Below, piece by piece: positions 14,316-32,449 of a DNA stretch of 64,000 bases. The notes under the pieces are model-generated. The model had not been told where the DNA came from and made no database searches. It saw nothing but the letters and a program-made list of their open reading frames with translations. Where the stretch lies: the NCBI GenBank assembly GCA_046262015.1, contig JBHENN010000097.1:1304-65303 (forward strand), read 5' to 3'. Source of the DNA: Actinomycetota bacterium. Lineage in GTDB: Bacteria > Actinomycetota > CADDZG01 > WHSQ01. The translations under genes were made by a program, and so were the position numbers. Each line of letters starts with the position of its first letter. The stretch's first letter is position 1.

Positions 14316-14400
14316 GCCCACTGGCGCGATCGAGCCCGGAACGCGCGGGGGGTTGCCCCGCGGCGGTTCCTGCTGTAGCCTGCTCCGCCTACAAAGAGAT

Positions 14401-14411
14401 TTGTCTACAAG
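14401..14411 (+). promoter_or_regulatory. Motif copy TTGTCTACAAG, 20 nt upstream of the parA-like ATG
   Basis: Member of the ACTTGTC[G/T]ACA(AG) family (minus orientation). It is preceded by a second partial copy, CCTACAAAG. Confidence 0.5.
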
Positions 14412-14430
14412 TGGACGCAGGGGAGGGCCC

Positions 14431-15480
14431 ATGGAGCAACGCGTCGAGGCGGCCGACGGCCCCGAGGAGCGGTCCGCGACGCTCAGGTCGACCGACGCGC
14501 CGGTCCCGACCGACGATCCCGCCCTCGCCTCCGCGGACGGGGGAGCGCTGCCCACCATCCCCGGGCTGGCGACCTCGGGGGCCCACGACGGACCCGTTTC
14601 GGAGCCGGTCCCCATCGCGGTGGAGGAGCCGGCGGTGGAGGAGCGGCTCGACGCCCCCCTGCCGGAGGTCTCGTTCCCTCCCGGGCCCGACCCGGCCCGG
14701 ATCATCGCCTTCGCCAACCAGAAGGGCGGCGTCGGCAAGACCACCTCCACGATCAGTCTGGCGGCCGCCCTGGCGGAGCTGGAGCGGCGCGTCCTCGTGG
14801 TGGACTTCGACCCTCAGGGCGGCTGCTCGCTGGCTCTCGGCATCGAGCCGGGCACCCTGGACCTGTCGGTCTACAACGCGCTGCTGGACCGGGACTGCCG
14901 GCCCGAGGACGTCGTTCAGAAGACGAGCGTCCCCGGCGTCGACCTCCTGCCGTCCAACATCGACCTCGCCGCGGCCGAGCTCATGTTGGTCAACGAGGTC
15001 GCCCGGGAGCAGACCCTGATGAGGGTCCTCTCCCCTCTAAGGCTAAAGTATAACTTTATCCTTATCGACTGTCCGCCGTCCCTGGGACTGCTCACGATCA
15101 ACGCCCTCACCGCGGCCGACGGCGTCATCGTCCCGCTCGAGTGCGAGTACTACGCCTTGCGGGGCATGGGCCTCCTGATGGACTCGATCGAGCGCATCCG
15201 GGACCGCCTGAACCCCAGCCTGCATATCGACGGCATCGTCGCCACCATGTACGACGGCCGCACCCTGCACAGTCGCGAGGTCCTCGCCCGGGTACGCGAG
15301 GCGTTCGGCGGCCAGGTGTTCGACACGATGATCCGCAAGACGATCCGGTTCGCGGAAGCCCCCGTCGCGGGGGAGCCCATCCTGAGCTATGCCCCCAACT
15401 CCCCGGGGGCGATGTCCTATCGGAAACTCGCCAAGGAGGTGATGGAGCGTGTCACGTCGAGCCAGCCTTCCGGGCGCTGA
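14431..15480 (+). CDS. ParA/Soj-family ATPase with ~95 aa Pro/Ala/Glu-rich N-terminal extension (Rv1708/PldP-like position)
   Basis: Deviant Walker A (FANQKGGVGKTT). ATG at 14431 is preceded by GGGGAGGG. The gene sits between xerD and scpAB. Confidence 0.9.
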   Translation: MEQRVEAADGPEERSATLRSTDAPVPTDDPALASADGGALPTIPGLATSGAHDGPVSEPVPIAVEEPAVEERLDAPLPEVSFPPGPDPARIIAFANQKGGVGKTTSTISLAAALAELERRVLVVDFDPQGGCSLALGIEPGTLDLSVYNALLDRDCRPEDVVQKTSVPGVDLLPSNIDLAAAELMLVNEVAREQTLMRVLSPLRLKYNFILIDCPPSLGLLTINALTAADGVIVPLECEYYALRGMGLLMDSIERIRDRLNPSLHIDGIVATMYDGRTLHSREVLARVREAFGGQVFDTMIRKTIRFAEAPVAGEPILSYAPNSPGAMSYRKLAKEVMERVTSSQPSGR

Positions 15481-15814
15481 CGAGCTGTTCCGCAAGACGT
15501 CCGAGCGACCTTCGTCCGCGCGTCCGGACGATGCAGGTAGTCAAGCTAAGTCGATAAATCTACAAGTCGCCCCAGGGCCCACCCCTGACCCGGCCCCGGC
15601 CCCGCGCAAGGGCCCCAAGCACGACGAGAAGGTCACCTTCTACTGCACCGCGGACGACCTGATGGGACTCGAGCGGGCCCGGCTCCAGCTCCGCGCCGAG
15701 CACGGGATCGCAGCCGACCGCGGACGGATAGTCCGGGCCGCGCTTGCGTACGTCCTGGAGGACTTCGACGCCCGCGCCGACGACTCGATCCTCCTGAGGC
15801 GCCTCCAGAAGTAG
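15449..15814 (+). CDS. Small protein with a disordered basic N-terminus and a C-terminal ribbon-helix-helix-like domain; candidate ParG/omega-type partner of the ParA-like ATPase
   Basis: Third-position GC is very high in the C-terminal 70 codons. KVTFYCTADDLMGLERARLQLRAEHGIAADRGRIVRAALAYVLED has a strand-helix-helix pattern. The ORF overlaps the parA end by 32 nt; the start is uncertain. The RHH assignment is inference only. Confidence 0.6.
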   Translation: MSRRASLPGADELFRKTSERPSSARPDDAGSQAKSINLQVAPGPTPDPAPAPRKGPKHDEKVTFYCTADDLMGLERARLQLRAEHGIAADRGRIVRAALAYVLEDFDARADDSILLRRLQK

Positions 15815-16213
15815 GCGACCAGAGGCGTTGTAACCCTGTAGTTGAGGGTTAGTCGGTCGCGCGCGGTCCCGGGTACAGGAGCAGCCGGGAGATCGGGCGC
15901 ACACCGCGGACGCCGGCCCGCCGGCGGATACCGGGCGTGGCTCCGCGCGGACACGAGGCCCCCTGTCCCGCGAGGGCCCGGCGCCCGGTACCTGGAGCGG
16001 TTCCTCGTAGGGCAGGCAGCTCCGGTTCAGCCCCCCGATCGGGGGTGGGCTCTTCTTCCGGCGCCCGCCTGAGCCAGCCGCCGCCGGGGGATATTTATCC
16101 ACATGTCACCAAGTTGTCACCTCGATATAGGCGCTTAGCTGCTTGTCTACTCCTAACGATCGGCCTGGGTAGGGGCCCAGAACCGGCCTTCGCCTAGGGT
16201 GACTTAGTTATGT

Positions 16214-16236
16214 ATCGACATGTCTACATCGACATG
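16214..16236 (+). repeat. Direct repeat ATCGACATG x2 (14 bp period) flanking TGTCTACA in island Z1
   Basis: ATCGACATG occurs at 16214-16222 and 16228-16236. A TAGGGT hexamer lies just upstream at 16195-16200. Confidence 0.6.
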
Positions 16237-17442
16237 CCGGGGGGTCCCGAACGGCTCTGCGGCCGAGGCGGCCCCGCGCGACCACCCCTCGTGGCCGCCA
16301 GGGGCCGAGGGTCTTCAGGTGGGGTCGCCCGCGCCCTCCGGGGGCGATTCCCCGGGGCGACCTCCCCGATCGGGGACAGGGGGCCGGACCTTGCCCAGTG
16401 GCGGGCGGGTGTTCCCAGCGCACCGGTGACTGGGTGTCCCAGGCCCGCCTGGAGCGAAGAATAGAGCTTTAGGTAAGGGTTAGTCTCGGCCGCCACAGCC
16501 TCTCGGGCGAGGAGCTCCCAGGCGCAGAGCTCCCAGGTCAGCACCGCGCAGATCGCTCGAGGCGCGAGCCCCGGCGCGGATCTCCGCGGGCGGATCGGCC
16601 CGTGGGGGGTGCCAGACCGGCAGGCGACAGGCGTAGGCCGACAGGGAGCGTCCCTGCGGCGGCCGGGGAAGTGTGGGGCGGCCCGCCCCCTCAGTCCGGG
16701 CGCGCGGGGCTTCTCTACAAGTTCACTCAAACATATATCACTTTGTCGATATGTAGGCTGTGCCACCTAGGCGGGCTCCCCCAGGGCAGCCCCCACAGAC
16801 TTATCTGTTACTCTATAGGTAGACAAGTTGATATATCGCCCGAAGCCGGGATCGTCCCACCCCTGCCAGTTGACCGGGTTCCACCCCAGCGCCCCCCCTG
16901 CGGGGAGCTGCAACCGGCGGCCTGAGGGCCTAAGGCGCAGGCCACTCACTGTCGTGGCGCTTCTCGCCGACGATGTGCCGGCCGGATCTCTCGAGCCGGT
17001 TCAGTTCCGGCCCCGGTGTGGGGGCCCCGGGGGAGCGTGGCCCTCTACCCGAGGGACGGCGCCGCCGCGCCGAACCCAGCCTCACCCTTAAGTAGAGAGT
17101 TAGCTCGGGAGGACTGGGATCCGAGGTGGCGAGGGCCGCACGGGGCGGGCCGGTCCGCACCGCCGGTCGAGGCGACGCGTCGCTGCGTGGACGCTCCCCG
17201 TCGGGTGGGCCCCTCGGTGGCGGCCCCCTCGGGTCCGGCGCGGAACTATGACGAGCAGCCAGCAGGACTGAAGGAGCCCTAGCCCCGACTCCTGCCGGCG
17301 GATCCGGGCACCCAACCCGGGGATCGGCGGACGGTTCGGGGTTAAGGCCCCTACCCCGCAGGCACCCCGCCGACAGGAGCCTGCGGCTGGTCGGGTCGCG
17401 GAGGTTCGCGGATAGACTGTCTATGGATCTAGCGGCAAGACA

Positions 17443-17455
17443 CCTTGTCGACAAA
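17443..17455 (+). promoter_or_regulatory. Motif copy CCTTGTCGACAAA in island Y3
   Basis: Near-palindromic member of the motif family. It is followed by ACTTGTAC at 17459-17466 and preceded by the palindrome ATAGACTGTCTAT at 17412-17424. Confidence 0.5.
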
Positions 17456-17532
17456 TGTACTTGTACGCACGCGGCAAAGGCCCTGGCCGGCGCCCCGAGA
17501 AACCCTCGGATCGCGGGTGACTTATCGATATA

Positions 17533-18265: not shown

Positions 18266-19330
18266 GTGGAAAGGGTCGAGTTGGACTTGAAGGATGGAGC
18301 CGGGCCGCAGCGGGTCTTCAGCGGGATCAAGCCGACGGGCCAAGCGCACCTCGGCAACTACCTGGGCGCGATCCGCCACTGGGTGGCCCATCAGGAGGAG
18401 CACGAGTCGTTCTTCTGCATCGTCGACCTCCACGGGATGACGTTGCCGTGGGATCCCGCCGAGCTGCGGGAGCAGACGCTCGGCAAGGGGGCCGAGCTCC
18501 TCGCCTGCGGGATCGACCCGGAGCGCTCGGTCGTGTTCATCCAGTCACACGTCGCGGCGCATACCGAGCTCGCCTGGGTGCTGACCTGTCTGTCCCGGAT
18601 GGGGGAGCTGCGCCGGATGGTGCAGTTCAAGGAGAAGTCTAAAGGTGAGGTCGAGACCGTGGGGGTGGGGTTGTTCGCCTATCCGGTGCTCCAGGCGGCC
18701 GACGTCCTCCTCTACCAGGCCCACGGGGTCCCCGTCGGCGAGGACCAGCGCCAGCACGTCGAGCTGATGCGTACGCTCGCGACCCGCTTCAACCGGCGCT
18801 TCGGCCCCACGTTCGTCGTCCCCGAGGCCCGTGTCCCCCCGGAGGGTGCCCGGATCATGGCCCTCGACGATCCCGCTCAGAAGATGAGCAAGTCGGACGA
18901 GCGTCCCAAGGCGGCGATCCTGCTGGTCGATTCCGCCGACGCGATCGCGGCCAAGGTGCGTGCGGCGGTGACCGACTCGGGCACCGAGGTGCGGGCGGGG
19001 GCCGACAAGCCCGCTCTCACGAACCTGCTCACGATGTTCTCGCTTGTCGCAGAGGTCGCTCCCGGAGAGCTCGAGGGTCGCTACCGGGACCGTGGCTACG
19101 GCGACCTCAAGAGGGACCTCACGGCGGCGCTGGTGGAAGGTCTCCGGCCGATCCGCGAGCGCTACGAGGAGCTGATGGGCGATCCCGGTGAGCTCCGCCG
19201 GCTGCTGGCCCAGGGAGCCCTGCGAGCCGCCGAGGTCGCCGACGCCACGATGGCCGTGGTGCGCGACCGCGTCGGACTCTCCGGCCGTGCGGTCGAGGAA
19301 AGCCGCTGGAGCGGAGCGGTGCGCGGCTAG
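18266..19330 (+). CDS. trpS: Tryptophan--tRNA ligase
   Basis: RVFSGIKPTGQAHLGNYLGA (HIGH-type) and KMSKS motifs are present. Start is GTG 18266, or TTG 18281. Confidence 0.9.
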   Translation: MERVELDLKDGAGPQRVFSGIKPTGQAHLGNYLGAIRHWVAHQEEHESFFCIVDLHGMTLPWDPAELREQTLGKGAELLACGIDPERSVVFIQSHVAAHTELAWVLTCLSRMGELRRMVQFKEKSKGEVETVGVGLFAYPVLQAADVLLYQAHGVPVGEDQRQHVELMRTLATRFNRRFGPTFVVPEARVPPEGARIMALDDPAQKMSKSDERPKAAILLVDSADAIAAKVRAAVTDSGTEVRAGADKPALTNLLTMFSLVAEVAPGELEGRYRDRGYGDLKRDLTAALVEGLRPIRERYEELMGDPGELRRLLAQGALRAAEVADATMAVVRDRVGLSGRAVEESRWSGAVRG

Positions 19331-19375
19331 GCTGAGGGCGCCCGGTTGGCCGCGCCCCGGGGCGTAGGGGCGTGG

Positions 19376-19391
19376 ATGTCGACAAGTCGAT
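19376..19391 (+). promoter_or_regulatory. Motif copy ATGTCGACAAGTCGAT at the annotated scpA start
   Basis: The reverse complement shares the 15-mer ATCGACTTGTCGACA exactly with the copy at 29624-29638. Confidence 0.5.
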
Positions 19392-20188
19392 TTGGAGACG
19401 AAGTGACCTACGAGGTGAAGCTCGACGCCTTCCACGGGCCGATCGACCTGCTGCTCCACCTCATCACGCGCCAGCGCGTCGACATCTACGACATCTCACT
19501 CGCCACGATCACCGAGGAGTACCTCGCCGCGGCGGCAGAGATCGACGGGCTCGACCTGGAGCGGGCCACCGGCTTCCTGGTCGTCGCCGCGACCCTGCTG
19601 GAGCTCAAGTCGGCCCGGCTCCTCCCGGCCCCCGAGCGGGACGGGGGGGACGGCCACCTGCTCGAGGAGCGTGACCGCCTCCTGGCCCGCCTGGTGGAGT
19701 GCTCGACCTACCGTGAGGCCGGGGGATGGATCGCCGCCGCCCTCCGGGCGAGCGAGGACGTGCACGGGCGGAGCGTCTCGATGGAGCCGCCCTATCTCGA
19801 TCTCGTCCCGGATCTCCTTGCCCGGACGACGGCCGCCGACCTCGCTCGAGCCGCCGCCCGCCTCCTGGTGCCTCGTCCCGAGCCGACGCTCGACATGACG
19901 CACGTCGCCCCGATCGTGGCATCGGTTCGGGACGCCATCGTCGAGCTCGCCCAGCGCCTCCGGGGCGGCGAGGCCACGTCGTTCGAAGACCTGTGCGGCA
20001 CCTCCGAGCGGATCGAGGTGGTGGTCCGGTTCCTGGCCCTCCTGGAGCTGTTCAAGGCAGGGGCGGTGGACCTCGACCAGCGGGAGCGGTTCGGCGCGAT
20101 CGCGGTGTCGTGGACCGGCGAGGTCGACGCCCAGGAGGTCGCGCTCGAGGCCGAGGAGTACGCCGCGCTGCGAAAGGGAGCGGCGTGA
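19376..20188 (+). CDS. scpA: Segregation and condensation protein A
   Basis: FHGPIDLLLHLI motif near the N-terminus. It is followed by scpB with a GTGA overlap. The true start could be a downstream GTG. Confidence 0.85.
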   Translation: MSTSRFGDEVTYEVKLDAFHGPIDLLLHLITRQRVDIYDISLATITEEYLAAAAEIDGLDLERATGFLVVAATLLELKSARLLPAPERDGGDGHLLEERDRLLARLVECSTYREAGGWIAAALRASEDVHGRSVSMEPPYLDLVPDLLARTTAADLARAAARLLVPRPEPTLDMTHVAPIVASVRDAIVELAQRLRGGEATSFEDLCGTSERIEVVVRFLALLELFKAGAVDLDQRERFGAIAVSWTGEVDAQEVALEAEEYAALRKGAA

Positions 20189-20748
20189 CCGCGACCGACC
20201 GCAAAGTCATCGAGGCGATCCTGCTTCTCGCCGACGAGCCCGTGCCCGCGTCGCTGATCGGCGAGGTCCTCGAGCGCCCCCGGGCCGAGGTCGAGGCCGC
20301 CCTGGAGAGCCTGCGCGATTCCTACGAGGCGGACGACCGAGGCTTCCAGCTCCGGCGCGCCGCGGGGGGGTGGCGCCTCTACACGAGCCCGGACTGCGCC
20401 CCCTGGCTCGAGCGCTTCGTGACCCGCCACAGCCACAGCCGGCTCACCGGCGCCGCCCTGGAGGTTCTCGCGATCGTCGCCTACCGCCAGCCGATCTCAC
20501 GCGCCCAGATCGCCGAGATCCGCGGCGTCGACTCCGACGGGGTCGTGAAGACCCTGGCGCAGAGAGGGCTCCTGGCGCCCGTCGGGCGGGACGCGGGACC
20601 CGGCTTGCCGGTCCTGTTCGCGGTGACCGACGACCTCCTCGAGCGCCTGGGGCTCGATTCCCTCGCCGAGCTGCCCCCGCTGGCATCGTTCATGCCCGAC
20701 GCCGAGGCGGTCGAGGACATGGAGGCGAAGCTATCGCCGAACGCCTGA
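20185..20748 (+). CDS. scpB: Segregation and condensation protein B
   Basis: IEAILLLADEPV, ISRAQIAEIRGVDSDGVVKTL and winged-helix repeats fit ScpB. GTG at 20185. Confidence 0.85.
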   Translation: MTATDRKVIEAILLLADEPVPASLIGEVLERPRAEVEAALESLRDSYEADDRGFQLRRAAGGWRLYTSPDCAPWLERFVTRHSHSRLTGAALEVLAIVAYRQPISRAQIAEIRGVDSDGVVKTLAQRGLLAPVGRDAGPGLPVLFAVTDDLLERLGLDSLAELPPLASFMPDAEAVEDMEAKLSPNA

Positions 20749-21530: not shown

Positions 21531-21900
21531 CCCGCCGTCCCGCGTGCGCGCCGTGCGGGGGGCAACGGTCGTGCCCGCCGACGACCCCGGGGCGATCGTG
21601 GCGGCGACCGCGGAGCTGCTGCGGGCGATGCTGGCCCGCAACGACCTCGCGGTCGACGACCTCGTCAGCGTCATCTTCACCAGCACCGAGGACCTGACCG
21701 CCGAGTTCCCCGCCAGCGCGGCTCGAACGCTCGGGATCGCCGACATCCCTCTCCTGTGCGCCCGGGAGATCCCCGTCCCCGGGGCGCTCGCCCGGTGCGT
21801 GCGCGTCCTGCTGCACTGCTACACCGCCAAGGAGCGCGGCGCGCTCCGCCACGTCTACGTCGGCGAGGCCCAGCGCCTGCGCGACGACCTCCCGCAGTGA
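21508..21900 (+). CDS. aroH: AroH-type chorismate mutase
   Basis: VRAVRGATVV and DLVSVIFTSTEDL motifs are typical of monofunctional AroH chorismate mutase. It overlaps the rluB end. Confidence 0.85.
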   Translation: MSTRKQDDPPSRVRAVRGATVVPADDPGAIVAATAELLRAMLARNDLAVDDLVSVIFTSTEDLTAEFPASAARTLGIADIPLLCAREIPVPGALARCVRVLLHCYTAKERGALRHVYVGEAQRLRDDLPQ

Positions 21901-25004: not shown

Positions 25005-26340
25005 CGGCCGCTCCGGCCTTCCCCTGGTGGCCGTGGTCGGGCGGCCCAACGTCGGCAAGTCGTCGCTGGTCAACCGGGTGTTGGGGCGCAGGGAGGCGAT
25101 CGTCGAGGAGATGCCCGGGGTGACGCGCGACCGGACCGGCTTCGTCGCCGCGTGGAACGCCCGCGACTTCGAGATCATGGACACCGGAGGCCTCGAACCC
25201 GGGGCCGAGGGTCTCGAGGCTCACGTTAGGGACCAGGCCCGGGTCGCCATCGAGATCGCCGACGTGATCGTGCTGGTCGTGGACGCGGCCGCCGGCCCGA
25301 TAGAGGACGACCTCGCCGTCGCCGACGTCCTGCGTCGCTCGGGCAAGCCCGTCGTGGTCGCGGCCAACAAGGTGGACGATCCCGCCGACGAGGCCGACGC
25401 CGCGCGGTTCTACGGCCTGGGTCTGGGCGAGCCCCACCCGCTATCCGCGCTGCACGGGCGGGGATCGGGGGACTTCCTCGACGCCGTCGTCCGTGTCCTT
25501 CCGGCGGCCCCCGGCGAGACCCAACAGGCGTGGGCGTCGCTCGCGATCGTCGGGCGGCCCAACGTCGGCAAGTCCTCGATGCTCAACTCTCTCCTCGGCG
25601 AGCAGCGTGCGATCGTCGACGCGGCCCCCGGGACGACCCGCGACCCGGTCGACTCCTACCTACCGCTGGCGGGGGACCGCACCCTGCGCATCATCGACAC
25701 GGCCGGCATGAGGCGCCAGGCGCACATCACGGACCCGGTGGAGTACTTCGGCTTCCTGCGATCGCGCCGGACGATCCCCCGAGCGGATGCGGTGCTGCTC
25801 GTGGTCGACGTCGCGGAAGGCGTCGCCGGGCTCGACCAGCGGATCGCTCAGGAGGTCGTCGACGAGGGGCGAGCGTGCGTGGTCGCACTGAACAAGTGGG
25901 ACCTCGTGACGTCCGAGGAAACGGACCGCGCGCGACTCGAACGAGACGTGAAGAAGAAGCTGCGCTTCCTCGACTGGGCCACGGTGGTACGGACGTCGGC
26001 GCGGACCGGCCGAGGGGTCGACCGCCTGCTGCCCGCGGTCGAGAGCGCGATCGAGACTCACCGGAGAAGGCTCCCAACGGCGCTCGTGAACCGGCTCGTG
26101 ACCGATGCTCAGCAGCGGGCGCCTCACCCACGGGCGCGGGCCCGCACGCCACGCGTCCTGTACGCGGTCCAGGCGGACGTCGCGCCTCCTACCTTCGTCT
26201 TGTTCGCGAGCGCCCGGTTGGAGACGAACTACGTGCGCTACATCGAGAACGCCATCCGGGCGGTTCACCCGTTCGCGGGTACGCCCATCCAGATCCGGGT
26301 TCGGTTGAAGACCGCGCGCGAGCGAGAAGACGACGTATGA
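24994..26340 (+). CDS. der: Ribosome biogenesis GTPase Der (EngA), two GTPase domains plus KH-like domain
   Basis: Two G1 motifs (GRPNVGKSS twice), DTGG/DTAG motifs and a KH-like C-terminus are present. Confidence 0.95.
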   Translation: MAFSGRSGLPLVAVVGRPNVGKSSLVNRVLGRREAIVEEMPGVTRDRTGFVAAWNARDFEIMDTGGLEPGAEGLEAHVRDQARVAIEIADVIVLVVDAAAGPIEDDLAVADVLRRSGKPVVVAANKVDDPADEADAARFYGLGLGEPHPLSALHGRGSGDFLDAVVRVLPAAPGETQQAWASLAIVGRPNVGKSSMLNSLLGEQRAIVDAAPGTTRDPVDSYLPLAGDRTLRIIDTAGMRRQAHITDPVEYFGFLRSRRTIPRADAVLLVVDVAEGVAGLDQRIAQEVVDEGRACVVALNKWDLVTSEETDRARLERDVKKKLRFLDWATVVRTSARTGRGVDRLLPAVESAIETHRRRLPTALVNRLVTDAQQRAPHPRARARTPRVLYAVQADVAPPTFVLFASARLETNYVRYIENAIRAVHPFAGTPIQIRVRLKTAREREDDV

Positions 26341-26483: not shown

Positions 26484-27101
26484 ATGAGGCCCTCCGGCAT
26501 GTCCGCGACTACCGATCGGCCCGTCGCGTCGGAGCGCGTGCTCACGATCCCCAACATCCTCTCGCTCCTCCGGCTGGCGACCGTACCGGTGTTCTTGTGG
26601 CTGTTCGTGACCGGGCGTGAGGATGTCGCCGTCATCGTCTACGGGATCGCGGCGTGGACCGACTTCTTCGACGGCTACATCGCCCGCCGCACGGGGACCG
26701 TCACCGAGCTGGGCAAGCTGCTCGACCCCGCGTCGGATCGAATATTCATCCTGGCGCTGGTGGTGATGCTGTTGGCCCGGGGGGCCCTGTCGTGGTGGCT
26801 GGCGGCCGCGATCATCGCGCGCGACCTCGTGGTGCTGAGCGTGTTCCCCGCGCTGGAGCGCAAGAAGGTCGCGCGGATCCCCGTGAACCGGGTGGGGAAG
26901 CTTGCGACCGCGGCGCTCCTGTTCGGGCTCACCTGCCTGGCGCTGGCCGAGACCAGCTTCGCCGAGTGGTGGCCGGCGCGCCCTATCGGCCTTGCCGTCG
27001 CAATCTCCGGCGCCGGGTTGTACTGGATCGCCGGAGCTCTCTACGCGCGCGTGGCGTGGCAGCGTTTCAGGTCACTCGATGCAGGTAGGACCCTGCCGTG
27101 A
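26484..27101 (+). CDS. CDP-alcohol phosphatidyltransferase family protein
   Basis: DFFDGYIARRTGTVTELGKLLDPASDRI matches the D(x)2DG(x)2AR...G(x)3D(x)3D motif. An alternative ATG lies at 26499. Confidence 0.8.
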   Translation: MRPSGMSATTDRPVASERVLTIPNILSLLRLATVPVFLWLFVTGREDVAVIVYGIAAWTDFFDGYIARRTGTVTELGKLLDPASDRIFILALVVMLLARGALSWWLAAAIIARDLVVLSVFPALERKKVARIPVNRVGKLATAALLFGLTCLALAETSFAEWWPARPIGLAVAISGAGLYWIAGALYARVAWQRFRSLDAGRTLP

Positions 27102-29644
27102 CGCTTCGGGACATCCAAGCTGTGATCATGGCCGGAGGCGAGGGGTCGCGGCTTCGGCCGCTCACCAGCAACACCCCCAAACCCATGCTGCCCGTGGCCA
27201 ACCGGCCCTTGATGGAGCACATCATCACGCTGCTGGGTAGGCACGGGATCACCGACGTCGTAGCCACCGTGCAGTTCCTGTCGTCGGTGATCCGCAACTA
27301 CTTCCGCGATGGCTCCGACGTGGGGGTGTCGCTCTCGTACGCAACCGAAGAGGTCCCGCTCGGGACCGCGGGGTCCGTTTTCGGCGCCCGCGACCTCCTA
27401 TCGGGCACCTTCATCGTCATCTCCGGCGATGCGCTCACGGACCTCGACCTCGACGAGGCGGTCGACTTCCACCGCGCGAAGGGAGCGATGGCCACGCTCG
27501 TCCTCAAGCGGATGCAGGACCCGCTGGAGTTCGGGATCGTGATGACCTCCGAGGACGGCCGGATCGAGCGCTTCCTCGAGAAACCGAGCTGGGGGCAGGT
27601 CTTCACGGACACGATAAACACCGGCATCTACGTACTCGAGCCGGACGTCCTCGACCTGATCCCTCCCGACGAGGCACACGACTTCTCGTCCCAGCTCTTC
27701 CCCACGATGCTCGACAAGGGCCTGCCGCTGTACGGGTTCGTCACCGACGCCTACTGGACGGATGTGGGCACCACCGATGCGTACCTGCAGGCACACTCCG
27801 ACATCCTGGCGGGCAAGGTCACCCAGGAGATCCCCGGGTTCGAGCTGCGGCCGCGGGTCTGGGCCGGGGAAGACGTGGACGTGCACCCCACCGCCGTCAT
27901 AGAAGGTCCCGTCCTCATCGGTGACAACACCCGCATCGGCGCTGGCGCCGTCGTGGGGCCCTACGCCGTCCTGGGGCCGAACACGATCATCGGCGACGAC
28001 GCTCGGGTAGGCAATGGGAGCGTCGTGATGGACGGCAGCTACGTTGGCTCCTACGCGCGCGTGTGGGGGAGCGTGCTCGGCCGCGGTGTGACGCTCGAGA
28101 AGGGGTCCTCGGTGGAAGAGGGGGCCGTACTCGGGGACGAGGTCGTGGTGGGCGCGGGCGCGTTCATCAAGCCCCGCGTCCAGATCTATCCGGCGAGGAG
28201 CGTGGAAGCGGGCGCCATCGTCACTCAGAGTGTCGTCAAGGAGAAGCGAGCGACCCGCAACCTGTTCGGCGCGCGCGGCATGTCGGGCATGATCAACGTC
28301 GGCATCACTCCCGTCGCCGCGGTCCGCCTGGGCATGGCGTACGGAAGCACGCTAAAACGGGGCAGCGTGGTGGTGACCGGCCGCGACGCGAGCCGGGCCG
28401 CGCGCACGATCAAGCGCGCGGTCGTGGCCGGCCTCAACTCGACCGGGGTCACCTGCCACGACCTCGAGCTGGTCCCCACCCCCCTCACGCGCTTCACCGT
28501 CTCGAGCGAGCAAGCTTCCGGAGGGATCAGCGTCCGGACCTCACCGCGCGACCCCGAGATCCTCGAGATCCACCTCTTCGACGGCGACGGAGGCGACATC
28601 GCGGAGGCCGACCAGCGCAAGATCGAGCGGATGTTCTTCCGGGAGGACTACCGGCGACCCGGACCGTCCAAGCTGGGAGAGCTCGAGTTCCCCCCGCGGG
28701 CGCTGGAGCAGTACACGACCGGTCTCCTGGGCGCTCTCGACCTCGAGAGCATCCGGGCGAGCCGGTCGAAGGTGGTGGTGGATTACGCCTACGGTCCCTT
28801 CGCCACGATCGGACCCTCGATCCTCGGCAGGCTCGGCTGCGACGTGCTCTCGGTGAACGCGTTCACGGACGAGCACCGGCCCGTGCTCGTCGCCGCCGAC
28901 GTGGAGCGCCTCCTCGAGCAGCTGTCGGAGCACGTCATGAAGTCGGGCTCCGACCTGGGGGTCCTGATCGAGCCGGGAGGCGAGATCGCGCACCTCATCG
29001 ACGACCAGGGCCGGCGGGTCGAGCACGAGCGCGCCCTGGTGGCCTTCGTGCGTTACGGGTCCATGCTGGGAGCCACCGCGATCGCGCTGCCCGTCTCGGT
29101 ATCGAGCGTGTGCGAGACGGTGGCTGCGGGCAACGGAGCCCGGGTCCAGTGGGTCCCGAACACCCTGGCGGCGCTGATGGAGCGGGCGGCCCGGCCGAGC
29201 GTGGGCTTCGCCGGCAACGCCGAGGGCGCGCTGCTCTTCCCCGACTTCATGCCGGCGCCCGACGCGCTGATGACCTTCTGCAAGACGCTCGAGCTGATGG
29301 CCTCGGTGGAGCGCCCGCTCTCGATCATCGTGGACGACCTCCCCCCCGCGCACGTGGTCACGCGCGACGTCCGCACCCCGTGGGACCTCAAGGGCACGGT
29401 GATGAGAGAGCTCGCCGCGCAAGGCGCCCGGACCCCGGGGGCCGAGCTGCGCCTCCTCGACGGCGTGAAGGTCATCGAGGACGGGGCATGGACCCTGGTG
29501 ATCCCATATCCGGACCAGCCGGCGTGCCGCATCTGGGCCGAAGCGCCCACCCGGGCCGAGGCCGAGGCGCGCGCCGAGGGCCACGCCGAGCTCGTCGAGC
29601 GGATCGTGACCGCAGCCGGAAACATCGACTTGTCGACAACATGA
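27098..29644 (+). CDS. Fusion protein: sugar-1-phosphate nucleotidyltransferase (mannose-1-P guanylyltransferase-like) plus left-handed beta-helix plus phosphomannomutase/phosphoglucomutase-like domains
   Basis: The N-terminus has VIMAGGEGSRLRPLT. Hexapeptide repeats occupy the middle. The C-terminal ~450 aa have alpha-D-phosphohexomutase-like architecture. Confidence 0.8.
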   Translation: MTLRDIQAVIMAGGEGSRLRPLTSNTPKPMLPVANRPLMEHIITLLGRHGITDVVATVQFLSSVIRNYFRDGSDVGVSLSYATEEVPLGTAGSVFGARDLLSGTFIVISGDALTDLDLDEAVDFHRAKGAMATLVLKRMQDPLEFGIVMTSEDGRIERFLEKPSWGQVFTDTINTGIYVLEPDVLDLIPPDEAHDFSSQLFPTMLDKGLPLYGFVTDAYWTDVGTTDAYLQAHSDILAGKVTQEIPGFELRPRVWAGEDVDVHPTAVIEGPVLIGDNTRIGAGAVVGPYAVLGPNTIIGDDARVGNGSVVMDGSYVGSYARVWGSVLGRGVTLEKGSSVEEGAVLGDEVVVGAGAFIKPRVQIYPARSVEAGAIVTQSVVKEKRATRNLFGARGMSGMINVGITPVAAVRLGMAYGSTLKRGSVVVTGRDASRAARTIKRAVVAGLNSTGVTCHDLELVPTPLTRFTVSSEQASGGISVRTSPRDPEILEIHLFDGDGGDIAEADQRKIERMFFREDYRRPGPSKLGELEFPPRALEQYTTGLLGALDLESIRASRSKVVVDYAYGPFATIGPSILGRLGCDVLSVNAFTDEHRPVLVAADVERLLEQLSEHVMKSGSDLGVLIEPGGEIAHLIDDQGRRVEHERALVAFVRYGSMLGATAIALPVSVSSVCETVAAGNGARVQWVPNTLAALMERAARPSVGFAGNAEGALLFPDFMPAPDALMTFCKTLELMASVERPLSIIVDDLPPAHVVTRDVRTPWDLKGTVMRELAAQGARTPGAELRLLDGVKVIEDGAWTLVIPYPDQPACRIWAEAPTRAEAEARAEGHAELVERIVTAAGNIDLSTT
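29624..29640 (+). promoter_or_regulatory. Motif copy ATCGACTTGTCGACAAC spanning the stop codon of the upstream gene, 32 nt before the gcvH GTG
   Basis: It is followed by TATCGACATCGAG at 29647-29659 and an SD-like GAGAGAGGAG. Confidence 0.5.
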
Positions 29645-29671: not shown

Positions 29672-30058
29672 GTGGCCGACACCCCCGCTGACCGCCGCTA
29701 TACCAAGGAGCACGAGTGGGCTCGACCCGAGGACGGCCGTGTCGTCGTGGGGATCACCGACTTCGCCCAGGACCAGCTCGGCGACGTCGTGTTCGTGGGG
29801 CTGCCGGAGCCCGGGACCGCGGTCACCGCGGGCCGGCCCATGGGCGAGGTCGAGTCGACCAAGTCCGTGGCCGACCTCTACAGCCCGGTCACGGGCACCG
29901 TCGCCGCCAAGAACGACGCGGTCGAGCTGAATCCCGAGCTCGTCAACGCCGACCCCTACGGCGCCGGCTGGCTGGTTGCGATCGAGGGGGCCGGCGAGCT
30001 CGATGGGCTGCTCGACGCCGACGGCTATACCGCCTTCGTCGCGGCGCAGGGGGAGTGA
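29672..30058 (+). CDS. gcvH: Glycine cleavage system H protein
   Basis: The lipoyl-lysine motif context (GEVESTKSVADLYSPV) is present, with a full-length match. Confidence 0.95.
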   Translation: MADTPADRRYTKEHEWARPEDGRVVVGITDFAQDQLGDVVFVGLPEPGTAVTAGRPMGEVESTKSVADLYSPVTGTVAAKNDAVELNPELVNADPYGAGWLVAIEGAGELDGLLDADGYTAFVAAQGE

Positions 30059-30103: not shown

Positions 30104-30571
30104 ATGTTCTGCACCAACTGCGGTCACAAGAACCCCGAGGGCTCGAACTTCTGCTCGTCCTGCGGCGCCGCCCTGGCAGCCGCCGGTAGCGGCGAGTCCA
30201 CGATCACCTTCGCCCCGGCGGAGCTCGAGACCGACCTCGATGAAGAGATCCACATCAGCCCCGAGGAGCTCGAGGGGGGCCGGGCGGTCCTGATCGTGAA
30301 GCGGGGCCCCAACGCCGGCAGCAAGTTCTTCCTGGATGCCGATTCGACCGACGTGGGCCGGCACCCGGACAGCAGCATCTTCCTCGACGACATCACGGTA
30401 TCGCGGCGGCACGCGGAGATCCGCCGTTCAGACCACGGCTTCTCGCTCCACGACATCGGCAGCCTCAACGGGACCTACGTGAACCGGGAGCGGGTCGAGA
30501 CCGCCGAGCTGCGCTCCGGCGACGAGATCCAGGTCGGGAAGTTCAAGCTCGTGTTCCTGTCGGGGAGCTGA
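30104..30571 (+). CDS. FHA-domain protein with N-terminal zinc-ribbon (GarA/OdhI-position homologue)
   Basis: MFCTNCGHKNPEGSNFCSSCG zinc ribbon. FHA core (GRHPDSSIFLDDITVSRRHAEI...SLNGTYVNRERV). It follows gcvH, as Rv1827 does. Confidence 0.85.
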   Translation: MFCTNCGHKNPEGSNFCSSCGAALAAAGSGESTITFAPAELETDLDEEIHISPEELEGGRAVLIVKRGPNAGSKFFLDADSTDVGRHPDSSIFLDDITVSRRHAEIRRSDHGFSLHDIGSLNGTYVNRERVETAELRSGDEIQVGKFKLVFLSGS

Positions 30572-30573
30572 CG

Positions 30574-31296
30574 ATGCCTCTGTCTCGCACGCGCGACTAC
30601 CTCAGCATCGGCGAGGTGCTCGACGAGGTCCGGTCCGACTTCCCCGACGTCAGCATCTCCAAGATCCGCTTCCTCGAGGCCGAAGGTCTCCTCACGCCGG
30701 AGAGGACCGCCTCCGGGTACCGCAAGTTCTTCCCCGACGACGTCGCCCGCCTCCGCTACATCCTGGCCCTGCAGCGTGACCAGTTCCTGCCGCTCAAGGT
30801 CATCCGCGAGCGTCTCGCCGGTGCCGATGCAGCGGGCGCGTACCCCGACGCGGGCCCCGCCGCGTCATCGGCGGCGACCAACGGGGGAGCGCGCCCCCCC
30901 AGCCCGGTGGTCGGCAGCGATCTCACCGCGGCCCAGCTCACGCGCCGCGAGCTCGTGGCCGCCGCAGGTCTGACCGACGCCCAGCTCGCGGATCTCGAAG
31001 AGTTCGGGATACTGGCGCGCCGTGACGGAGACCTCTACGACGAGAACGACCTGGCCGCATGTTCGGCGGCAGCCGGGATGCTCGAGTTCGGCCTGCAGGC
31101 GCGCCACCTGCGCATGTTCCGTCAGTTCGCCGACCGGGAAACGGGAACCTACGAGCAGCTCGTCGCCCCCGGGGCGCTGCGCAAGAACCGGGAGGAGGCG
31201 CGCGCCCGCACGGCCCAGTCCCTGGCGCAGCTGGTCGCGCACGCCCGGCGGCTGCACGACGCCCTCGTGCGGTCGAACCTCCGCGCCCTTCTCTGA
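30574..31296 (+). CDS. MerR-family transcriptional regulator (Rv1828/FtsR-like)
   Basis: The N-terminal HTH (LSIGEVLDEV...ISKIRFLEAEGLLTPERTASGYRKF) is present. Synteny places it after the FHA gene. Confidence 0.8.
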   Translation: MPLSRTRDYLSIGEVLDEVRSDFPDVSISKIRFLEAEGLLTPERTASGYRKFFPDDVARLRYILALQRDQFLPLKVIRERLAGADAAGAYPDAGPAASSAATNGGARPPSPVVGSDLTAAQLTRRELVAAAGLTDAQLADLEEFGILARRDGDLYDENDLAACSAAAGMLEFGLQARHLRMFRQFADRETGTYEQLVAPGALRKNREEARARTAQSLAQLVAHARRLHDALVRSNLRALL

Positions 31297-31312
31297 CGCC
31301 CCGCCCGCGCGG

Positions 31313-32449
31313 GTGAACTTGTCGACAAGGCGACTTATCGCCGCAACCCTGCTGGCTCTCTGCTGGGTCGCGCCCGCCGCCCCGGGGACCACGGCCGGCC
31401 GTCGGCCGACCCTGTCGTGTGAGGCGTGCATCGTGGTCGACGACACCGGCCGCACCCTGTTCGCCCGGCGCGCCGGCCGGCCGCTGGCCATCGCCAGCAC
31501 GACCAAGATGATGACCGCCCTGCTCGCCGACGCCGCCCTCGCCCGGGACGAGCGGGTCACCGTATCGCCGACCGCGGCCGCCACGGGGGGCGGGGGGCTC
31601 GATCTCGAGGCGGGGGAGAGCTACCCGGTGGACACCCTCCTGAAGGCGTTGCTGATGACCTCGTCGAACGACGCCGCCGTCGCGCTGGCCGAGGCGGTGG
31701 CCGGCACGGAGGCCGCGTTCGTGCGGGCGATGAACCGGCGTGCCGCGGAGCTGGGGGCGCGCGGCACGATGTTCGTGACCGCGCACGGGCTCGACCGGCC
31801 CGGGCACGTCTCCACCGCCCGCGACCTCGCACGGATCGCCGCGGAGCTGCTTTCGGACCCGGAGCTGGCGGCGATCGCGGCGGCGCCGTCCACCACCGCC
31901 GCCGGGCCGGAGGGGAGCATCCTGCTGGAGAACCGTAACCTTCTACTGGAGAGTTATCCGGGGGCGATCGGCGTCAAGACCGGGTACACCGCCGAGGCCG
32001 GCAACGTGTTGGTCGCTGCGGCCCGTCGTCACGGGCGCCGTGTGATCACCGTCGCGCTCGGGTCCGACGACTCATTCGCCGACTCCACCGCGCTTCTCGA
32101 CCTCGGGTTCGCGCGCCTCCGCCGGGGGCTGGTGCTGCGCGCCGGTCGACCGGTCGGTGCCCTGGTGTTCGCGGCGGGAGGCGCGTCCCCGATCGTGGCG
32201 GCCGAGACCGTGCGCGGCATCGTGCGGCCCGATCGGGTGGAGGTATCCGTGGCGGCCACCTCCGGCGCCGCGGCGTTGCCGCTCGCGCCCGGGGACCGCG
32301 TCGGCACGATCGTGCTGAGCACCCGCTCGGGCCGCGTCATCGCCGAGGTCGCGGCGGTCGCCGCCGCGCCGGTCGATGCGCCCTCCGGCGGGTGGCTGGC
32401 CGGCCTCCTCGGGGGTCTGCTGCGCGGCGCGTGGCAGGTAGCCGGGTGA
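31313..32449 (+). CDS. D-alanyl-D-alanine carboxypeptidase (S11 family, low-MW PBP)
   Basis: SxxK (ASTTK), SxN (SSND) and KTG (KTGYT) motifs and a signal-like N-terminus are present. Start is GTG 31313 or TTG 31319. Confidence 0.85.
   Translation: MNLSTRRLIAATLLALCWVAPAAPGTTAGRRPTLSCEACIVVDDTGRTLFARRAGRPLAIASTTKMMTALLADAALARDERVTVSPTAAATGGGGLDLEAGESYPVDTLLKALLMTSSNDAAVALAEAVAGTEAAFVRAMNRRAAELGARGTMFVTAHGLDRPGHVSTARDLARIAAELLSDPELAAIAAAPSTTAAGPEGSILLENRNLLLESYPGAIGVKTGYTAEAGNVLVAAARRHGRRVITVALGSDDSFADSTALLDLGFARLRRGLVLRAGRPVGALVFAAGGASPIVAAETVRGIVRPDRVEVSVAATSGAAALPLAPGDRVGTIVLSTRSGRVIAEVAAVAAAPVDAPSGGWLAGLLGGLLRGAWQVAG
31318..31329 (+). promoter_or_regulatory. Perfect 12-bp palindrome CTTGTCGACAAG at the start of the dacB-like gene
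   Basis: It is seen directly in the sequence and is followed by GCGACTTATCG (Z-island-like GACTTATCG). Confidence 0.55.

Follow-up and report, generated by a model that had tools for sequence, protein, structure and literature searches.

Arrays of a tandem 8-bp repeat around a parA-like operon in Actinomycetota: candidate operator or centromere-like sites of a small ParA partner

A 3-unit lattice scan of the window (the whole 64-kb stretch of actinobacterial DNA analyzed here) revealed 13 arrays, all between positions 14391 and 31338 and composed of 3–5 units of ACWWGT plus 2 nt, repeated in either orientation with a period of 8 bp; the lattice reads ..GTCGAC-AA-GTCGAC... The 12-bp palindrome at gene starts, which an initial annotation of the window had taken as the motif, is real, but this definition misses the periodic arrays: the 12–14 bp palindrome is merely the strongest portion of a larger structure. 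We consider it moderately probable that the arrays are iterated double-stranded DNA sites for one symmetric (dimeric) protein, most likely the 121-aa partner of the ParA-like ATPase, and the operator and/or centromere-like function suggested previously is still, in our judgment, the best reading.

The motif was enriched approximately 10-fold over chance in the window: TGTCKACA was present 13 times against 2.0 expected, TTGTCGACAA with up to 1 mismatch 6 times against 0.64, and 10 sites matched ACTTGTCKACAAGT with up to 3 mismatches, for a total of 18 strand-hits where 2.1 were expected, each count being reached in none of 100 shuffles. The enriched sites were confined to 14.4–31.3 kb, in agreement with the clustering reported earlier (14.39–31.34 kb); the rest of the genome, beyond these 64 kb, may carry further clusters. 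All 14 motif strings quoted then were found exactly at their coordinates, as was the 11-mer ATGTCGACAAG shared by 19376 and 21508; the shared 15-mer also exists, with a one-base shift in its coordinates (29624–29638 is the reverse complement of 19377–19391). The arrays scored 15–26 bits versus a maximum of 13.6 bits across 30 Markov simulations, and 27 positions in the window reached 14 bits or more at period 8 versus 0–2 at periods 5–7 and 9–12. The same preference was evident in 1.22 Mb of related loci, with 646 positions at period 8 versus 0–34 for other periods. The "weak relatives" of the motif listed at 48288 and 54865 had no score on the lattice. One array was located in the parA leader, one inside the small gene, six in the non-coding gap, four in front of scpA, aroH, aroA and gcvH, and one at the dacB start:

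14353–14381, + strand: predicted parA-operon promoter, TTGCCC, 17 nt, TAGCCT
14391–14420: array 1, parA leader, ACAAAG ag ATTTGT ct ACAAGT gg ACGCAG, 24.6 bits
14431–15480, + strand: parA-like Walker ATPase, 349 aa, Pfam AAA_31 (2.4e-59), also CbiA
15449–15814, + strand: small gene, 121-aa protein, candidate array binder
15546–15575: array 2, small-gene linker, CTAAGT cg ATAAAT ct ACAAGT cg, 23.4 bits
15815–17532: non-coding gap of 1.7 kb from the small gene to the M50 peptidase gene (minus strand), with arrays 3–8
16085–16114: array 3, gap, ATTTAT cc ACATGT ca CCAAGT, including TTATCCACA, 24.6 bits
16202–16231: array 4, gap, ACTTAG tt ATGTAT cg ACATGT ct ACATCG, 18.2 bits
16717–16754: array 5, gap, ACAAGT tc ACTCAA ac ATATAT ca CTTTGT cg ATATGT, 22.3 bits
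16807–16844: array 6, gap, ..ATAGGT ag ACAAGT tg ATATAT cg.., 23.6 bits
17435–17472: array 7, gap, ..CCTTGT cg ACAAAT gt ACTTGT ac.., 25.8 bits
17512–17541: array 8, 3' end of the M50 gene, ..ACTTAT cg ATATAT ca ATAACC, 17.0 bits
19374–19403: array 9, 5' of scpA, GGATGT cg ACAAGT cg ATTTGG ag ACGAAG, 15.1 bits
21498–21527: array 10, rluB/aroH junction, ACAAGA gg ATATGT cg ACAAGG aa ACAAGA, 21.7 bits
23020–23057: array 11, 5' of aroA (GTG 23056), overlapping its RBS, 20.5 bits
29620–29661: array 12, 5' of gcvH (GTG 29672), TCGACTTG TCGACAAC ATGACCTA TCGACATC, 16.5 bits
31317–31338: array 13, start of the dacB-like gene, ACTTGT cg ACAAGG cg ACTTAT, 25.8 bits

The positions relative to gene starts required some correction. 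ScpA begins at GTG 19403 according to Pfam, and array 9 occupies the 30 nt preceding it rather than the start itself. The aroH start, where another copy had been placed, is ambiguous (ATG 21508 or GTG 21544), and array 10 also falls within a 17-codon C-terminal extension of rluB which is missing in relatives. The location at the dacB start held, since array 13 overlaps it with either GTG 31313 or TTG 31319. An AT-rich, intergenic motif adjoining gene starts might represent a generic promoter or leaderless-start feature of the lineage, by chance dense here, and ATGTCGACAAG reads Met-Ser-Thr-Lys/Arg at some predicted starts (21508 in the window and parA of locus L166). We find this extremely improbable, and locally it is already contradicted: no arrays were detected in the remaining 47 kb of the window, as expected for the local clustered system favored in the initial annotation, nor in roughly 9 kb 5' of parA in about 60 loci, nor in ~500 kb of more distant FtsR loci, where the gcvH and dacB sites were absent as well. 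Furthermore, promoter architecture has no counterpart of the 8-bp periodicity, and the parA array is preceded by a distinct, conserved -35/-10 pair, which also speaks against the TSS-proximal promoter element considered before.

Array 1 is placed downstream of this conserved promoter-like pair, where it would span approximately nucleotides +3 to +32 of the predicted transcript; 11 nt separate its end from the parA ATG at 14431. A TANNNT element ended 14–18 nt before the 14-mer in 56 of 63 related loci, with the complete TTGNNN-N16–19-TANNNT pattern in 51 of them; similarly, TAnnnT was conserved ~45 nt upstream of array 9 (TAGGCT at 19328–19333 in the window). The ParA-like ATPase has a low-complexity N-terminal extension of ~85 aa. 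The small gene starts within the parA 3' end (32 nt overlap), preceded 9 nt upstream by AAGGAGG, and is predicted to be translationally coupled to the parA-like gene. The following 1.7 kb gap had no ORF with coding-like GC3 and no Rfam matches; apart from the arrays, it contained three FtsR-box-like islands.

The arrays were found at the same places, sites before the orthologous genes included, in ~80 related uncultured Actinomycetota loci. The co-occurrence of the small protein with the arrays is partly built into this set, because the loci were collected either through the small protein or through FtsR. Counted by the 14-mer and by the lattice, respectively, the site classes comprised 72 and 67 sites in the parA leader (63 related loci had the 14-mer with up to 2 mismatches 5' of parA), 7 and 58 in the small-gene linker, 45 and 103 in the gap, 29 and 47 at trpS|scpA, 33 and 55 at rluB|aroH and 11 and 31 at tyrA|aroA. 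The rluB|aroH class was the most widely conserved, with TRTCGAYA boxes kept in Ca. Planktophila, Frankiales and Mycobacteriales MAGs. The gcvH array was kept in the nearest FtsR-anchored relatives (L087 and L088), and an array between ftsR and dacB in L085, L086 and L088. The gap measured 0.35–2.8 kb in 49 relatives, and its conservation was limited to short motifs. In most other clades examined the parA leader carried a box of the form TCGACAAAG or TGTCGACA. The "ACCAC" clade had it at 4 of 5 loci, with none found in L084, and it was also seen at L074, L079, L083, L165 and L166; the leader of L081 had just the 6–7-mers TATCGA and TGTCGAC, and that of L080 no box. The KVTFYCT clade, with the same predicted DNA-reading strand in its small protein, has additional, different palindromes ACCACGGAGCGTGGT 5' of parA, which were counted against binding by the small protein.

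Selection on the arrays acts at the nucleotide level. Array 2 lies within the coding sequence of the small gene (..AKSINLQVA.. in the window) and was found in 55 loci with rare codons. In the linker, Leu was encoded by CTA in 47/56 cases (2.9% elsewhere), Gln by CAA in 51/55 (16% elsewhere) and Thr by ACA in 47/48 (3.6% elsewhere), so that these codons make up 84–98% in the peptide KSTKLQVA versus 3–16% in other places; a sister clade has DLST (GACTTGTCGAC) instead of this peptide. Such rare codons preserve the array and thus indicate that the DNA letters themselves are selected. It would be very improbable, in our estimate, that the arrays act in RNA, as a 5'-UTR hairpin or as repeats for an RNA-binding protein gating downstream translation, even though they adjoin or overlap RBS and start codons (scpA 0 nt, aroA -1 nt, dacB overlap), sense-strand ACAAGT is favored 2–3 to 1 upstream of scpA, aroH and aroA, and the 14-mer can form a 5-bp hairpin. 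AA and TT orientations of the units occurred at similar frequency in the gap (112:94) and the parA leader (96:75), and the would-be paired positions did not covary (C-A 27 versus T-A 10, Fisher p = 0.56), which together point to double-stranded DNA read by a symmetric protein. In addition, many arrays consist purely of direct repeats and could form no hairpin, and six are located in the gap, which has no known transcript.

The best candidate for the array binder is, most likely, the 121-aa protein, and the array word is probably its docking and operator site. In the protein, a variable linker separates the N-terminal peptide MSRRASLPGADELFR from a conserved C-terminal domain; homologs of the protein numbered 6887 and at least 7998 in two counts, while no family was found in Pfam or NCBIfam and no sequence match among RHH families and PDB entries. 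The first full-length model had a pLDDT of 56. The AF2 model of the C-domain (pLDDT 85) contained an extended segment, in which the invariant K10, T12 and Y14 alternate with hydrophobic residues, followed by helices 17–34 and 40–57, i.e., 18 + 18 residues compared to 18 and 20 in ParB of pCXC100 (PMC3074162). In Foldseek, chains of this RHH protein ranked 2 and 8 of 9 matches (TM 0.50–0.57), a weak similarity without statistical significance (E 3.5). Of the binders proposed in the initial annotation, the RHH-like protein is the preferred candidate, with the model weakly suggesting the RHH fold itself.

Another possibility, which we regard as rather unlikely, is that an ordinary transcription factor other than the small protein, perhaps encoded elsewhere, uses the arrays as operators and controls a local regulon with no role in DNA positioning. 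The regulon would include the parA operon, scpAB, aroH-tyrA-aroA, gcvH and dacB. The location of most arrays outside the gap just 5' of start codons, the sites before housekeeping genes, the broadest conservation in the phylum of the boxes upstream of aroH and the RHH assignment having no statistical support would all fit. On the other hand, these targets share position, not a pathway; eight arrays lie in or beside the small gene, one being maintained inside its coding sequence; the parA-operon leader has a box in most clades examined; and tandem 8-bp lattices of 3–5 units are unusual for HTH factors. The two neighboring MerR regulators, also named previously as candidates, are unlikely binders: one is an FtsR equivalog and the other is in the McdR position, and the known sites of the FtsR ortholog, AACCCTAAAGTAAAGGTTGAGGGTA (PMC6683498), and of mycobacterial McdR, AATnACAnnnnTGTnATT (PMC9040748), are both unlike the lattice.

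DnaA-box clusters came into consideration through the similarity of TTGTCGACA to the actinobacterial box TTGTCCACA, from which it differs by one base. A perfect TTATCCACA is present within array 3 (16095–16103), some distant loci have TTGTCCACA or TTATCCACA plus four TCCACAG repeats 5' of parA, and an annotation of Rv1708 calls it an initiation inhibitor. Still, we give this option hardly any credence: the central dinucleotide is CG, not CC, in about 80–88% of sites, and the sites are palindromic and 8-bp periodic, in contrast to the asymmetric 9-mers of DnaA.

For the small ParA partner as binder, we infer the following scheme of parA-operon and neighbor repression and of a positioning or segregation role. 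The predicted C-terminal strand-helix-helix domain would read the boxes, with the 8-bp spacing allowing successive dimers to bind side by side, and would be connected by the disordered linker to the invariant N-terminal peptide contacting the ParA-like ATPase. Occupancy of array 1 would cover the parA transcript start and lead to autorepression of the operon. On array 2 and the six gap arrays, the bound protein would assemble into a large nucleoprotein complex adjacent to the operon, which the ATPase may use as a centromere-like cargo or landmark. Through the arrays at scpA, aroH, aroA, gcvH and dacB, this complex would stretch across ~17 kb, and binding there may in addition lower the expression of these genes.

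Among known partition systems, the type Ib modules of plasmids resemble this organization. Their centromere-binding proteins autoregulate and occupy unspaced repeats of 7–9 bp, in the form of 7-bp heptads, 4+4-bp boxes or 9-bp repeats (PMC3074162, PMC3130281). Compared to ParF/ParG-parH of TP228, delta/omega of pSM19035 and ParA/ParB of pCXC100, the shared features are a Walker ParA without an N-terminal HTH followed directly by a small protein, a flexible tail at the N terminus of this protein and a dimeric DNA-binding domain at its C terminus (here predicted), unspaced short repeats as cis sites, one array at the operon promoter suggesting autoregulation, and pCXC100 ParB being among the best compact structural matches to the C-domain. 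In contrast to type Ib, the present system is chromosomal, in a conserved xerD-parA-scpAB neighborhood, and no homolog was found in a search of 72,556 plasmids and 50,697 phages; its 13 arrays are dispersed across 17 kb, several before housekeeping genes and one embedded within the partner's own coding sequence, and no similarity of the 121-aa protein to ParG, omega or ParB of pCXC100 was detectable at the sequence level. Tandem 8-bp near-palindromic units are also typical of the metboxes of MetJ, which are repeated head to tail 2–5 times and occupied by one RHH dimer per unit with cooperative neighbors. However, MetJ is a repressor of metabolism that works with a co-repressor and without an ATPase partner, and its box AGACGTCT is unrelated to the sequence found here. 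Chromosomal ParB-parS systems likewise have palindromic sites clustered around partition genes, some inside genes, and their clusters span tens of kb and are the sites from which a large complex for the ParA ATPase nucleates, as proposed here. In these systems a spreading HTH/CTPase ParB recognizes parS, a 16-bp site of the GTTTCACGTGAAAC type, in contrast to the 8-bp lattices, the small protein lacking ParB domains and the "orphan" ParA locus, not parAB, described above. The synteny xerD-parA-x-scpA-scpB-rluB-..-cmk-der was also found in Frankiales and Mycobacteriales MAGs, and by this synteny the ATPase appears to hold the position of PldP (C. glutamicum Cg1610), Rv1708 and MSMEG_3743, i.e., pyrG-..-xerD-parA-like-scpA-scpB-rluB-..-cmk-der, with the orthology deduced from synteny only and the gene neighbors of Rv1708 taken from the M. 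tuberculosis map. These three ATPases have been described as orphans with an unknown activating partner (10.1101/2025.07.02.662783; PMC10482377; PMC3989709), in contrast to the ATPase studied here, which is accompanied by a conserved partner-like gene and cis arrays. If the proposed scheme is true, it could explain how the "orphan" ParA ATPases of actinobacteria find their targets.

The strings quoted in the initial annotation were all found in place by direct check, and the two long exact repeats noted there were borne out, the 15-mer at 29624-29638 recurring as the reverse complement of 19377-19391. The over-representation of the motif in this window of about 70% GC also held against a composition-matched background of 100 dinucleotide-preserving shuffles per pattern search, none of which (0/100) reached the observed counts: TTGTCGACAA with at most one mismatch occurred 6 times against 0.64 expected, ACTTGTCKACAAGT with at most three mismatches occupied 10 sites against about 1, and TGTCKACA occurred 13 times against 2.0. 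The sites of these enriched patterns were confined to 14.4-31.3 kb, where the motif occupies the short spacers ahead of parA, scpA, aroH, aroA and gcvH, the start of dacB, the interior of the gene of a conserved 121-aa protein and, repeatedly, a non-coding gap.

Genes and other features around the motif sites, as assigned by Pfam and NCBIfam
12941-13915, xerD-like recombinase
13968-14315, DksA-like protein
14431-15480, ParA-like ATPase (parA)
15449-15814, conserved 121-aa protein without family (small protein)
15815-17532, non-coding gap of 1.7 kb
17533 to ~18210, minus strand, M50 peptidase
18281-19330, trpS
19403-20188, scpA
20185-20748, scpB
20760-21530, rluB
21508 or 21544 to 21900, aroH
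21926-23008, tyrA
23056-24354, aroA
24351-25004, cmk
24994-26340, der
26390, tRNA-Pro
27098-29644, nucleotidyltransferase-phosphomutase fusion
29672-30058, gcvH
30104-30571, FHA protein (GarA/OdhI position)
30574-31296, FtsR (MerR family, equivalog)
31313-32449, D-Ala-D-Ala carboxypeptidase (dacB-like)
32392-33135, phosphoribosyltransferase
33167-33643, bifunctional nuclease
33734-34288, second MerR regulator

The Rfam scan of the whole window returned tRNA-Pro alone. In the 848-aa fusion, a sugar-nucleotidyltransferase with hexapeptide repeats is linked to a phosphoglucomutase/phosphomannomutase; this fusion also follows der in the Mycobacteriales MAG locus L166. The FHA protein has an N-terminal zinc ribbon. 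At 30104-34288, the dacB-like carboxypeptidase and the phosphoribosyltransferase are inserted between ftsR and the nuclease gene and break up a cluster conserved in actinobacteria, odhI/garA-ftsR-nuclease-merR (PMC6683498). Genes are mostly on the plus strand up to ~46 kb and mostly on the minus strand beyond (window 1-64000), and the cumulative GC skew, a weak one, has its maximum near 26-30 kb; the strand switch and the skew peak hint at a replication terminus nearby, the skew over 64 kb being too weak to place it, and a search of the window for a dif-like 28-bp site (ATAA-N6-TTATG core) gave one chance-level match with 2 mismatches.

The sites in relatives yielded the consensus ACTTGTCGACAAGT and were often simple tandem repeats, e.g. 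TAGACAAGTAGACAAGTAG, ACAAGTCGACAAGTCGACAAGT and AGACAAGAAGACAAGAAGACAAGT; in a position profile of 210 sites, weaker ACAAG-like units stood on both sides of the 14-mer forming the strongest palindromic part, at -8, +16 and +24. Each repeat unit consists of ACWWGT and two further bases, mostly CG; the repeats can equally be read as GTCGAC hexamers spaced by AA or TT. Since ACAAGT is the reverse complement of ACTTGT, the lattice is preserved whichever way a unit points. The palindrome initially described as the core of the motif is real, but it is one inverted pair inside this larger 8-bp lattice and not the whole motif. Scored as the sum over three consecutive units, the lattice formed 13 arrays of 15-26 bits in the window, all inside 14391-31338, against a best score of 13.6 bits among 30 Markov-simulated windows. 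As an internal control, period 8 gave 27 positions of at least 14 bits in the window versus 0-2 at periods 5-7 and 9-12, and in 1.22 Mb of related loci it gave 646 positions versus 0-34 at other periods. The arrays, numbered along the window, lie in the parA leader (1), the small-gene linker (2), the gap (3-8) and at scpA (9), aroH (10), aroA (11), gcvH (12) and dacB (13). In the window, rluB does not stop at the ..GL* that is usual in its relatives and has 17 extra codons running through array 10 to TGA 21528-21530 (window 21480-21530), so that array 10 is nominally coding in rluB here, and possibly in aroH as well, if the latter starts at ATG 21508.

Related loci were collected via homologs of the 121-aa protein (84 loci from uncultured Actinomycetota, including one labelled Ca. 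Planktophila, with the exception of one short contig binned as Gemmatimonadetes) and via FtsR (80 metagenome loci), with at most 10 kb of flank seen on each side compared to 64 kb in the own genome. The arrays recurred at the same places. Co-occurrence of the protein with the arrays is no independent test in loci chosen through the small protein or FtsR.

Counts of the 14-mer and of the lattice by place in the relatives
parA leader: 14-mer 72, lattice 67
gap after the small gene: 14-mer 45, lattice 103
small-gene linker: 14-mer 7, lattice 58
trpS/scpA junction: 14-mer 29, lattice 47
rluB/aroH junction: 14-mer 33, lattice 55
tyrA/aroA junction: 14-mer 11, lattice 31
after der: 14-mer 6, lattice ~16

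No arrays were present in the ~9 kb upstream of parA in any related locus, and almost none inside the other genes of relatives. The gcvH and dacB arrays were kept in the nearest FtsR-anchored relatives (L085-L088), in one of which, L088, arrays run from aroH to 4.4 kb past ftsR; the more distant FtsR loci (~500 kb) had none. This positional conservation, together with the absence from the other stretches covered, marks the element as a conserved one of local distribution, as opposed to a word common to promoters in general. The feature is real, conserved and more structured than was seen initially. When the gap was compared with all relatives by blastn, its conserved non-coding sequence was limited to the short motifs.

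In more distant lineages (loci with the small protein 40-55% identical, a Ca. Planktophila MAG, Frankiales and Mycobacteriales MAGs) a simpler TRTCGAYA box was retained, above all in the rluB-aroH spacer and also in the parA leader of most loci; GC-rich words dominated a k-mer recurrence scan of the distant, high-GC loci. The Frankiales and Mycobacteriales MAGs have their large non-coding region (700-880 bp) between rluB and aroH and not after the small gene, with scattered TGTCGACA boxes at L165:13363-14061 and L166:13338-14215. In one distant clade (L073, L075, L077, L082, L084), one or two ACCACGGAGCGTGGT-type palindromes stand ~150-250 nt upstream of parA, upstream of its promoter and additional to the leader TCGACAAAG box, the latter being present in four of the five loci.

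Array 2 encodes the sole conserved stretch of the otherwise variable linker of the small protein, K-S-T-K/N-L-Q-V-A, as AAG TCG ACA AAG CTA CAA GTC GCC. In a comparison of 55 loci with their neighbouring genes as reference, Leu was encoded by CTA in 47/56 cases in the array versus 2.9% in the neighbouring genes, Gln by CAA in 51/55 versus 16%, and Thr by ACA in 47/48 versus 3.6%. Where the CAA was lost (L010, L040), extra units stood just upstream, and a sister clade has another peptide, D-L-S-T, encoded by GACTTGTCGAC. The rare codons, the extra units and the sister-clade peptide show that selection acts on the nucleotides and, judging from these codons, the conservation of the linker block is really one at the DNA level, making array 2 a clear case of a putative binding array kept within a disordered coding linker by rare codons. 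An RNA element was contradicted by two observations: unit orientations were balanced in non-coding DNA (112 AA versus 94 TT in the gap, 96 versus 75 in the parA leader), and the would-be hairpin pairs varied independently instead of covarying (C-G 109, T-G 54, C-A 27, T-A 10; Fisher p=0.56). Both observations fit a symmetric protein on duplex DNA.

Upstream of parA, a TANNNT hexamer ended 14-18 nt before the 14-mer in 56/63 loci, with TTGNNN 16-19 nt further up in 51/63; the corresponding predicted promoter in the window is TTGCCC at 14353-14358 and TAGCCT at 14376-14381. Assuming a start ~7 nt after the predicted -10, array 1 would cover about +3 to +32, which would be a classic repressor position. 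The scpA array is located in the leader and adjoins the ribosome-binding site, with a conserved TAnnnT ~45 nt further upstream, and at the other genes the arrays take up nearly all the intergenic space. At this GC content, matches to sigma-70 and terminator consensus sequences over 14.2-19.5 kb carried no information. The generic promoter element also considered initially was contradicted by the lattice periodicity, the local conservation and the separate upstream promoter-like pair.

Control by another transcription factor with a local regulon is an alternative explanation, to which a low probability was assigned. The two neighbouring MerR regulators, named initially among the possible binders, are unlikely in this role because the published sites of FtsR, a 25-bp inverted repeat AACCCT-N13-AGGGTA, AACCCTAAAGTAAAGGTTGAGGGTA (PMC6683498), and of mycobacterial McdR (MerR, Rv1830), AATnACAnnnnTGTnATT (PMC9040748), differ from the lattice, the latter in half-site order and spacing; the second MerR of the window occupies the McdR position. 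A ParB-parS system was rejected, the motif not being the 16-bp parS consensus and no ParB-type (HTH/CTPase) domain occurring among the neighbouring genes. A cluster of DnaA boxes (asymmetric 9-mer TT(A/G)TCCACA) was rejected as well: the equivalent positions 6-7 are CG, TA or CT and rarely CC, and the window has one perfect DnaA-box-like word, TTATCCACA, at 16095-16103 within array 3. In the distant clade, L073, L077 and L082 carry TTGTCCACA or TTATCCACA upstream of parA, and the Mycobacteriales MAG has four TCCACAG direct repeats there (L166:8830-8920). In the literature, the motif strings turned up in cloning primers only, and the Streptomyces DAP-seq atlas preprint did not mention this locus.

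A second AT-rich conserved element of the gap, TAACCCT-N7..13-(A)GGTTGA/AGGGTTA, is close to the published FtsR site AACCCTAAAGTAAAGGTTGAGGGTA (PMC6683498); AGGGTTA/TAACCCT occurred 29 times in the gaps versus 3.8 expected. Its three islands in the window (15829-15853, 16465-16485 and 17083-17105; in relatives, e.g. L035:4385 and L012:10399/10794/11335) alternate with pairs of lattice arrays at ~620 bp spacing, and FtsR itself is encoded at 30574-31296. Boxes resembling the FtsR site also occur within the parA coding sequence of ~25 loci, ~600 nt ahead of the small gene's end (e.g. L052:9762), where the rare codons TTA and CCT are used in cTTAACCCTCAACTAGAGGTTGATGG, read as L N P Q L E V D G. 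In ~15 loci such a box, GGAGGcTAACCCTGAACCAGAGCTTGAG, stands where trpS begins (e.g. L032:2195). The window has neither of these. The window parA contains at 15037-15070 another sequence, CTAAGGCTAAAGTATAACTTTATCCTTATCGAC, which forms a 25-bp inverted repeat (AAGGCTAAAGT-ATA-ACTTTATCCTT) using AT-rich rare codons in a gene of ~90% GC3, with similar sequences in L008, L020 and L053.

The candidate binder of the arrays is the small protein, whose gene starts with GTG 15449, overlaps the 3' end of parA by 32 nt, is preceded by AAGGAGG (a good Shine-Dalgarno sequence) and lies directly downstream of parA in all loci fetched. It has three conserved parts: an N-terminal peptide, the linker block and a C-terminal domain. 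The peptide, MSRRASLPGA(D/E)ELFR (MSRRASLPGADELFRRT), is invariant. ParB, ParG and omega activate their ATPases through basic, Gly/Leu-rich N-terminal peptides, which we take the peptide of the small protein to resemble. The family is large (6887 and at least 7998 matches) and named "hypothetical" by the sources, some of which borrow the name of the neighbouring ParA gene; the exact sequence had no record in the contig index. No match was found in Pfam (to E 10), NCBIfam or a PDB sequence search, nor by tblastn against plasmid and phage collections.

AF2 gave a poor model of the full-length protein (pLDDT 56), and the Foldseek matches obtained with it carried no meaning. The model of the C-terminal 70 residues (105-sequence alignment) reached pLDDT 85 and consisted of an extended segment (8-16), two 18-residue helices (17-34 and 40-57) and a short third helix. 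Invariant K10, T12 and Y14 alternate with hydrophobic residues in the extended segment, as in the sequences of beta-ribbons that read DNA. With this domain, no Foldseek match was significant; matches 2 and 8 were chains of the RHH protein ParB of pCXC100 (TM 0.50-0.57, E 3.5-8.7). In this centromere-binding protein of an actinobacterial plasmid, a 65-residue flexible tail and a short strand precede two helices, of 18 and 20 residues, and the protein binds nine unspaced 9-bp repeats (PMC3074162). In hhalign comparisons with RHH sequences (ParG, omega, Arc, CopG, Mnt and MetJ) the probability was <1%, with the strand in register with CopG and MetJ. From the model, the K/T/Y pattern and the non-significant Foldseek matches the fold was called RHH-like, an assignment that is unproven.

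By synteny, the ParA-like ATPase occupies the PldP/Rv1708 slot, Rv1708 having the corresponding neighbours in the M. tuberculosis gene order. Where the division site is placed depends in part on PldP in Corynebacterium and on Rv1708/MSMEG_3743 in mycobacteria. In the literature these proteins still count as orphans in need of an activator (PMC3989709; PMC10482377; 10.1101/2025.07.02.662783), and no DNA target is known for them (10.1101/2025.07.02.662783; PMC10482377). The reported Rv1708-ScpA interaction (PMC10482377) is compatible with arrays around scpAB and proves nothing here. Across many Actinomycetota (MAGs of Frankiales, Mycobacteriales and Nanopelagicales among them), this slot holds an unannotated partner-like gene together with conserved cis arrays. 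It is possible, if still doubtful, that the small protein is the sought partner of such "orphan" ATPases, forming with the arrays a chromosomal non-ParB segrosome that marks ~17 kb around scpAB and is coupled to the ATPase for positioning of this chromosome region or of the division/SMC machinery, with tuning of the flanking genes in addition. The locus thereby offers a concrete testable hypothesis comprising a protein, a peptide and a DNA site.

In the proposed mechanism, dimers of the small protein would bind cooperatively to successive 8-bp units. Occupancy of array 1 would repress the parA operon, array 2 and the six gap arrays would nucleate a large complex adjoining it, and the other five arrays would let this complex extend across 17 kb and might thereby modulate scpAB, aroH-tyrA-aroA, gcvH and dacB, with the N-terminal peptide linking the complex to the nucleoid-bound ParA-like ATPase.

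Several traits of type Ib partition systems are matched. The Walker/deviant Walker ATPase lacks the N-terminal HTH of type Ia and shows Pfam AAA_31 and CbiA only, with no domain match in its N-terminal 85 residues and NCBIfam ParA-family partial matches below cut-off. The small partner gene is directly downstream in the same operon, and the iterated centromere beside the operon, which also acts as operator in type Ib, has its counterpart in the 8-bp arrays of the promoter-proximal leader and those inside and downstream of the partner gene. In type Ib systems the partner also binds the repeats and stimulates the ATPase, and the module stabilises a replicon. In contrast to the plasmid or mobile carriage of type Ib systems, the neighbourhood here is a conserved chromosomal housekeeping one. 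Among known systems, the feature would come closest in function to the partition and operator modules of type Ib, here with a candidate binder, differing from them in being chromosomal, dispersed and tied to the actinobacterial "orphan" ParA locus.
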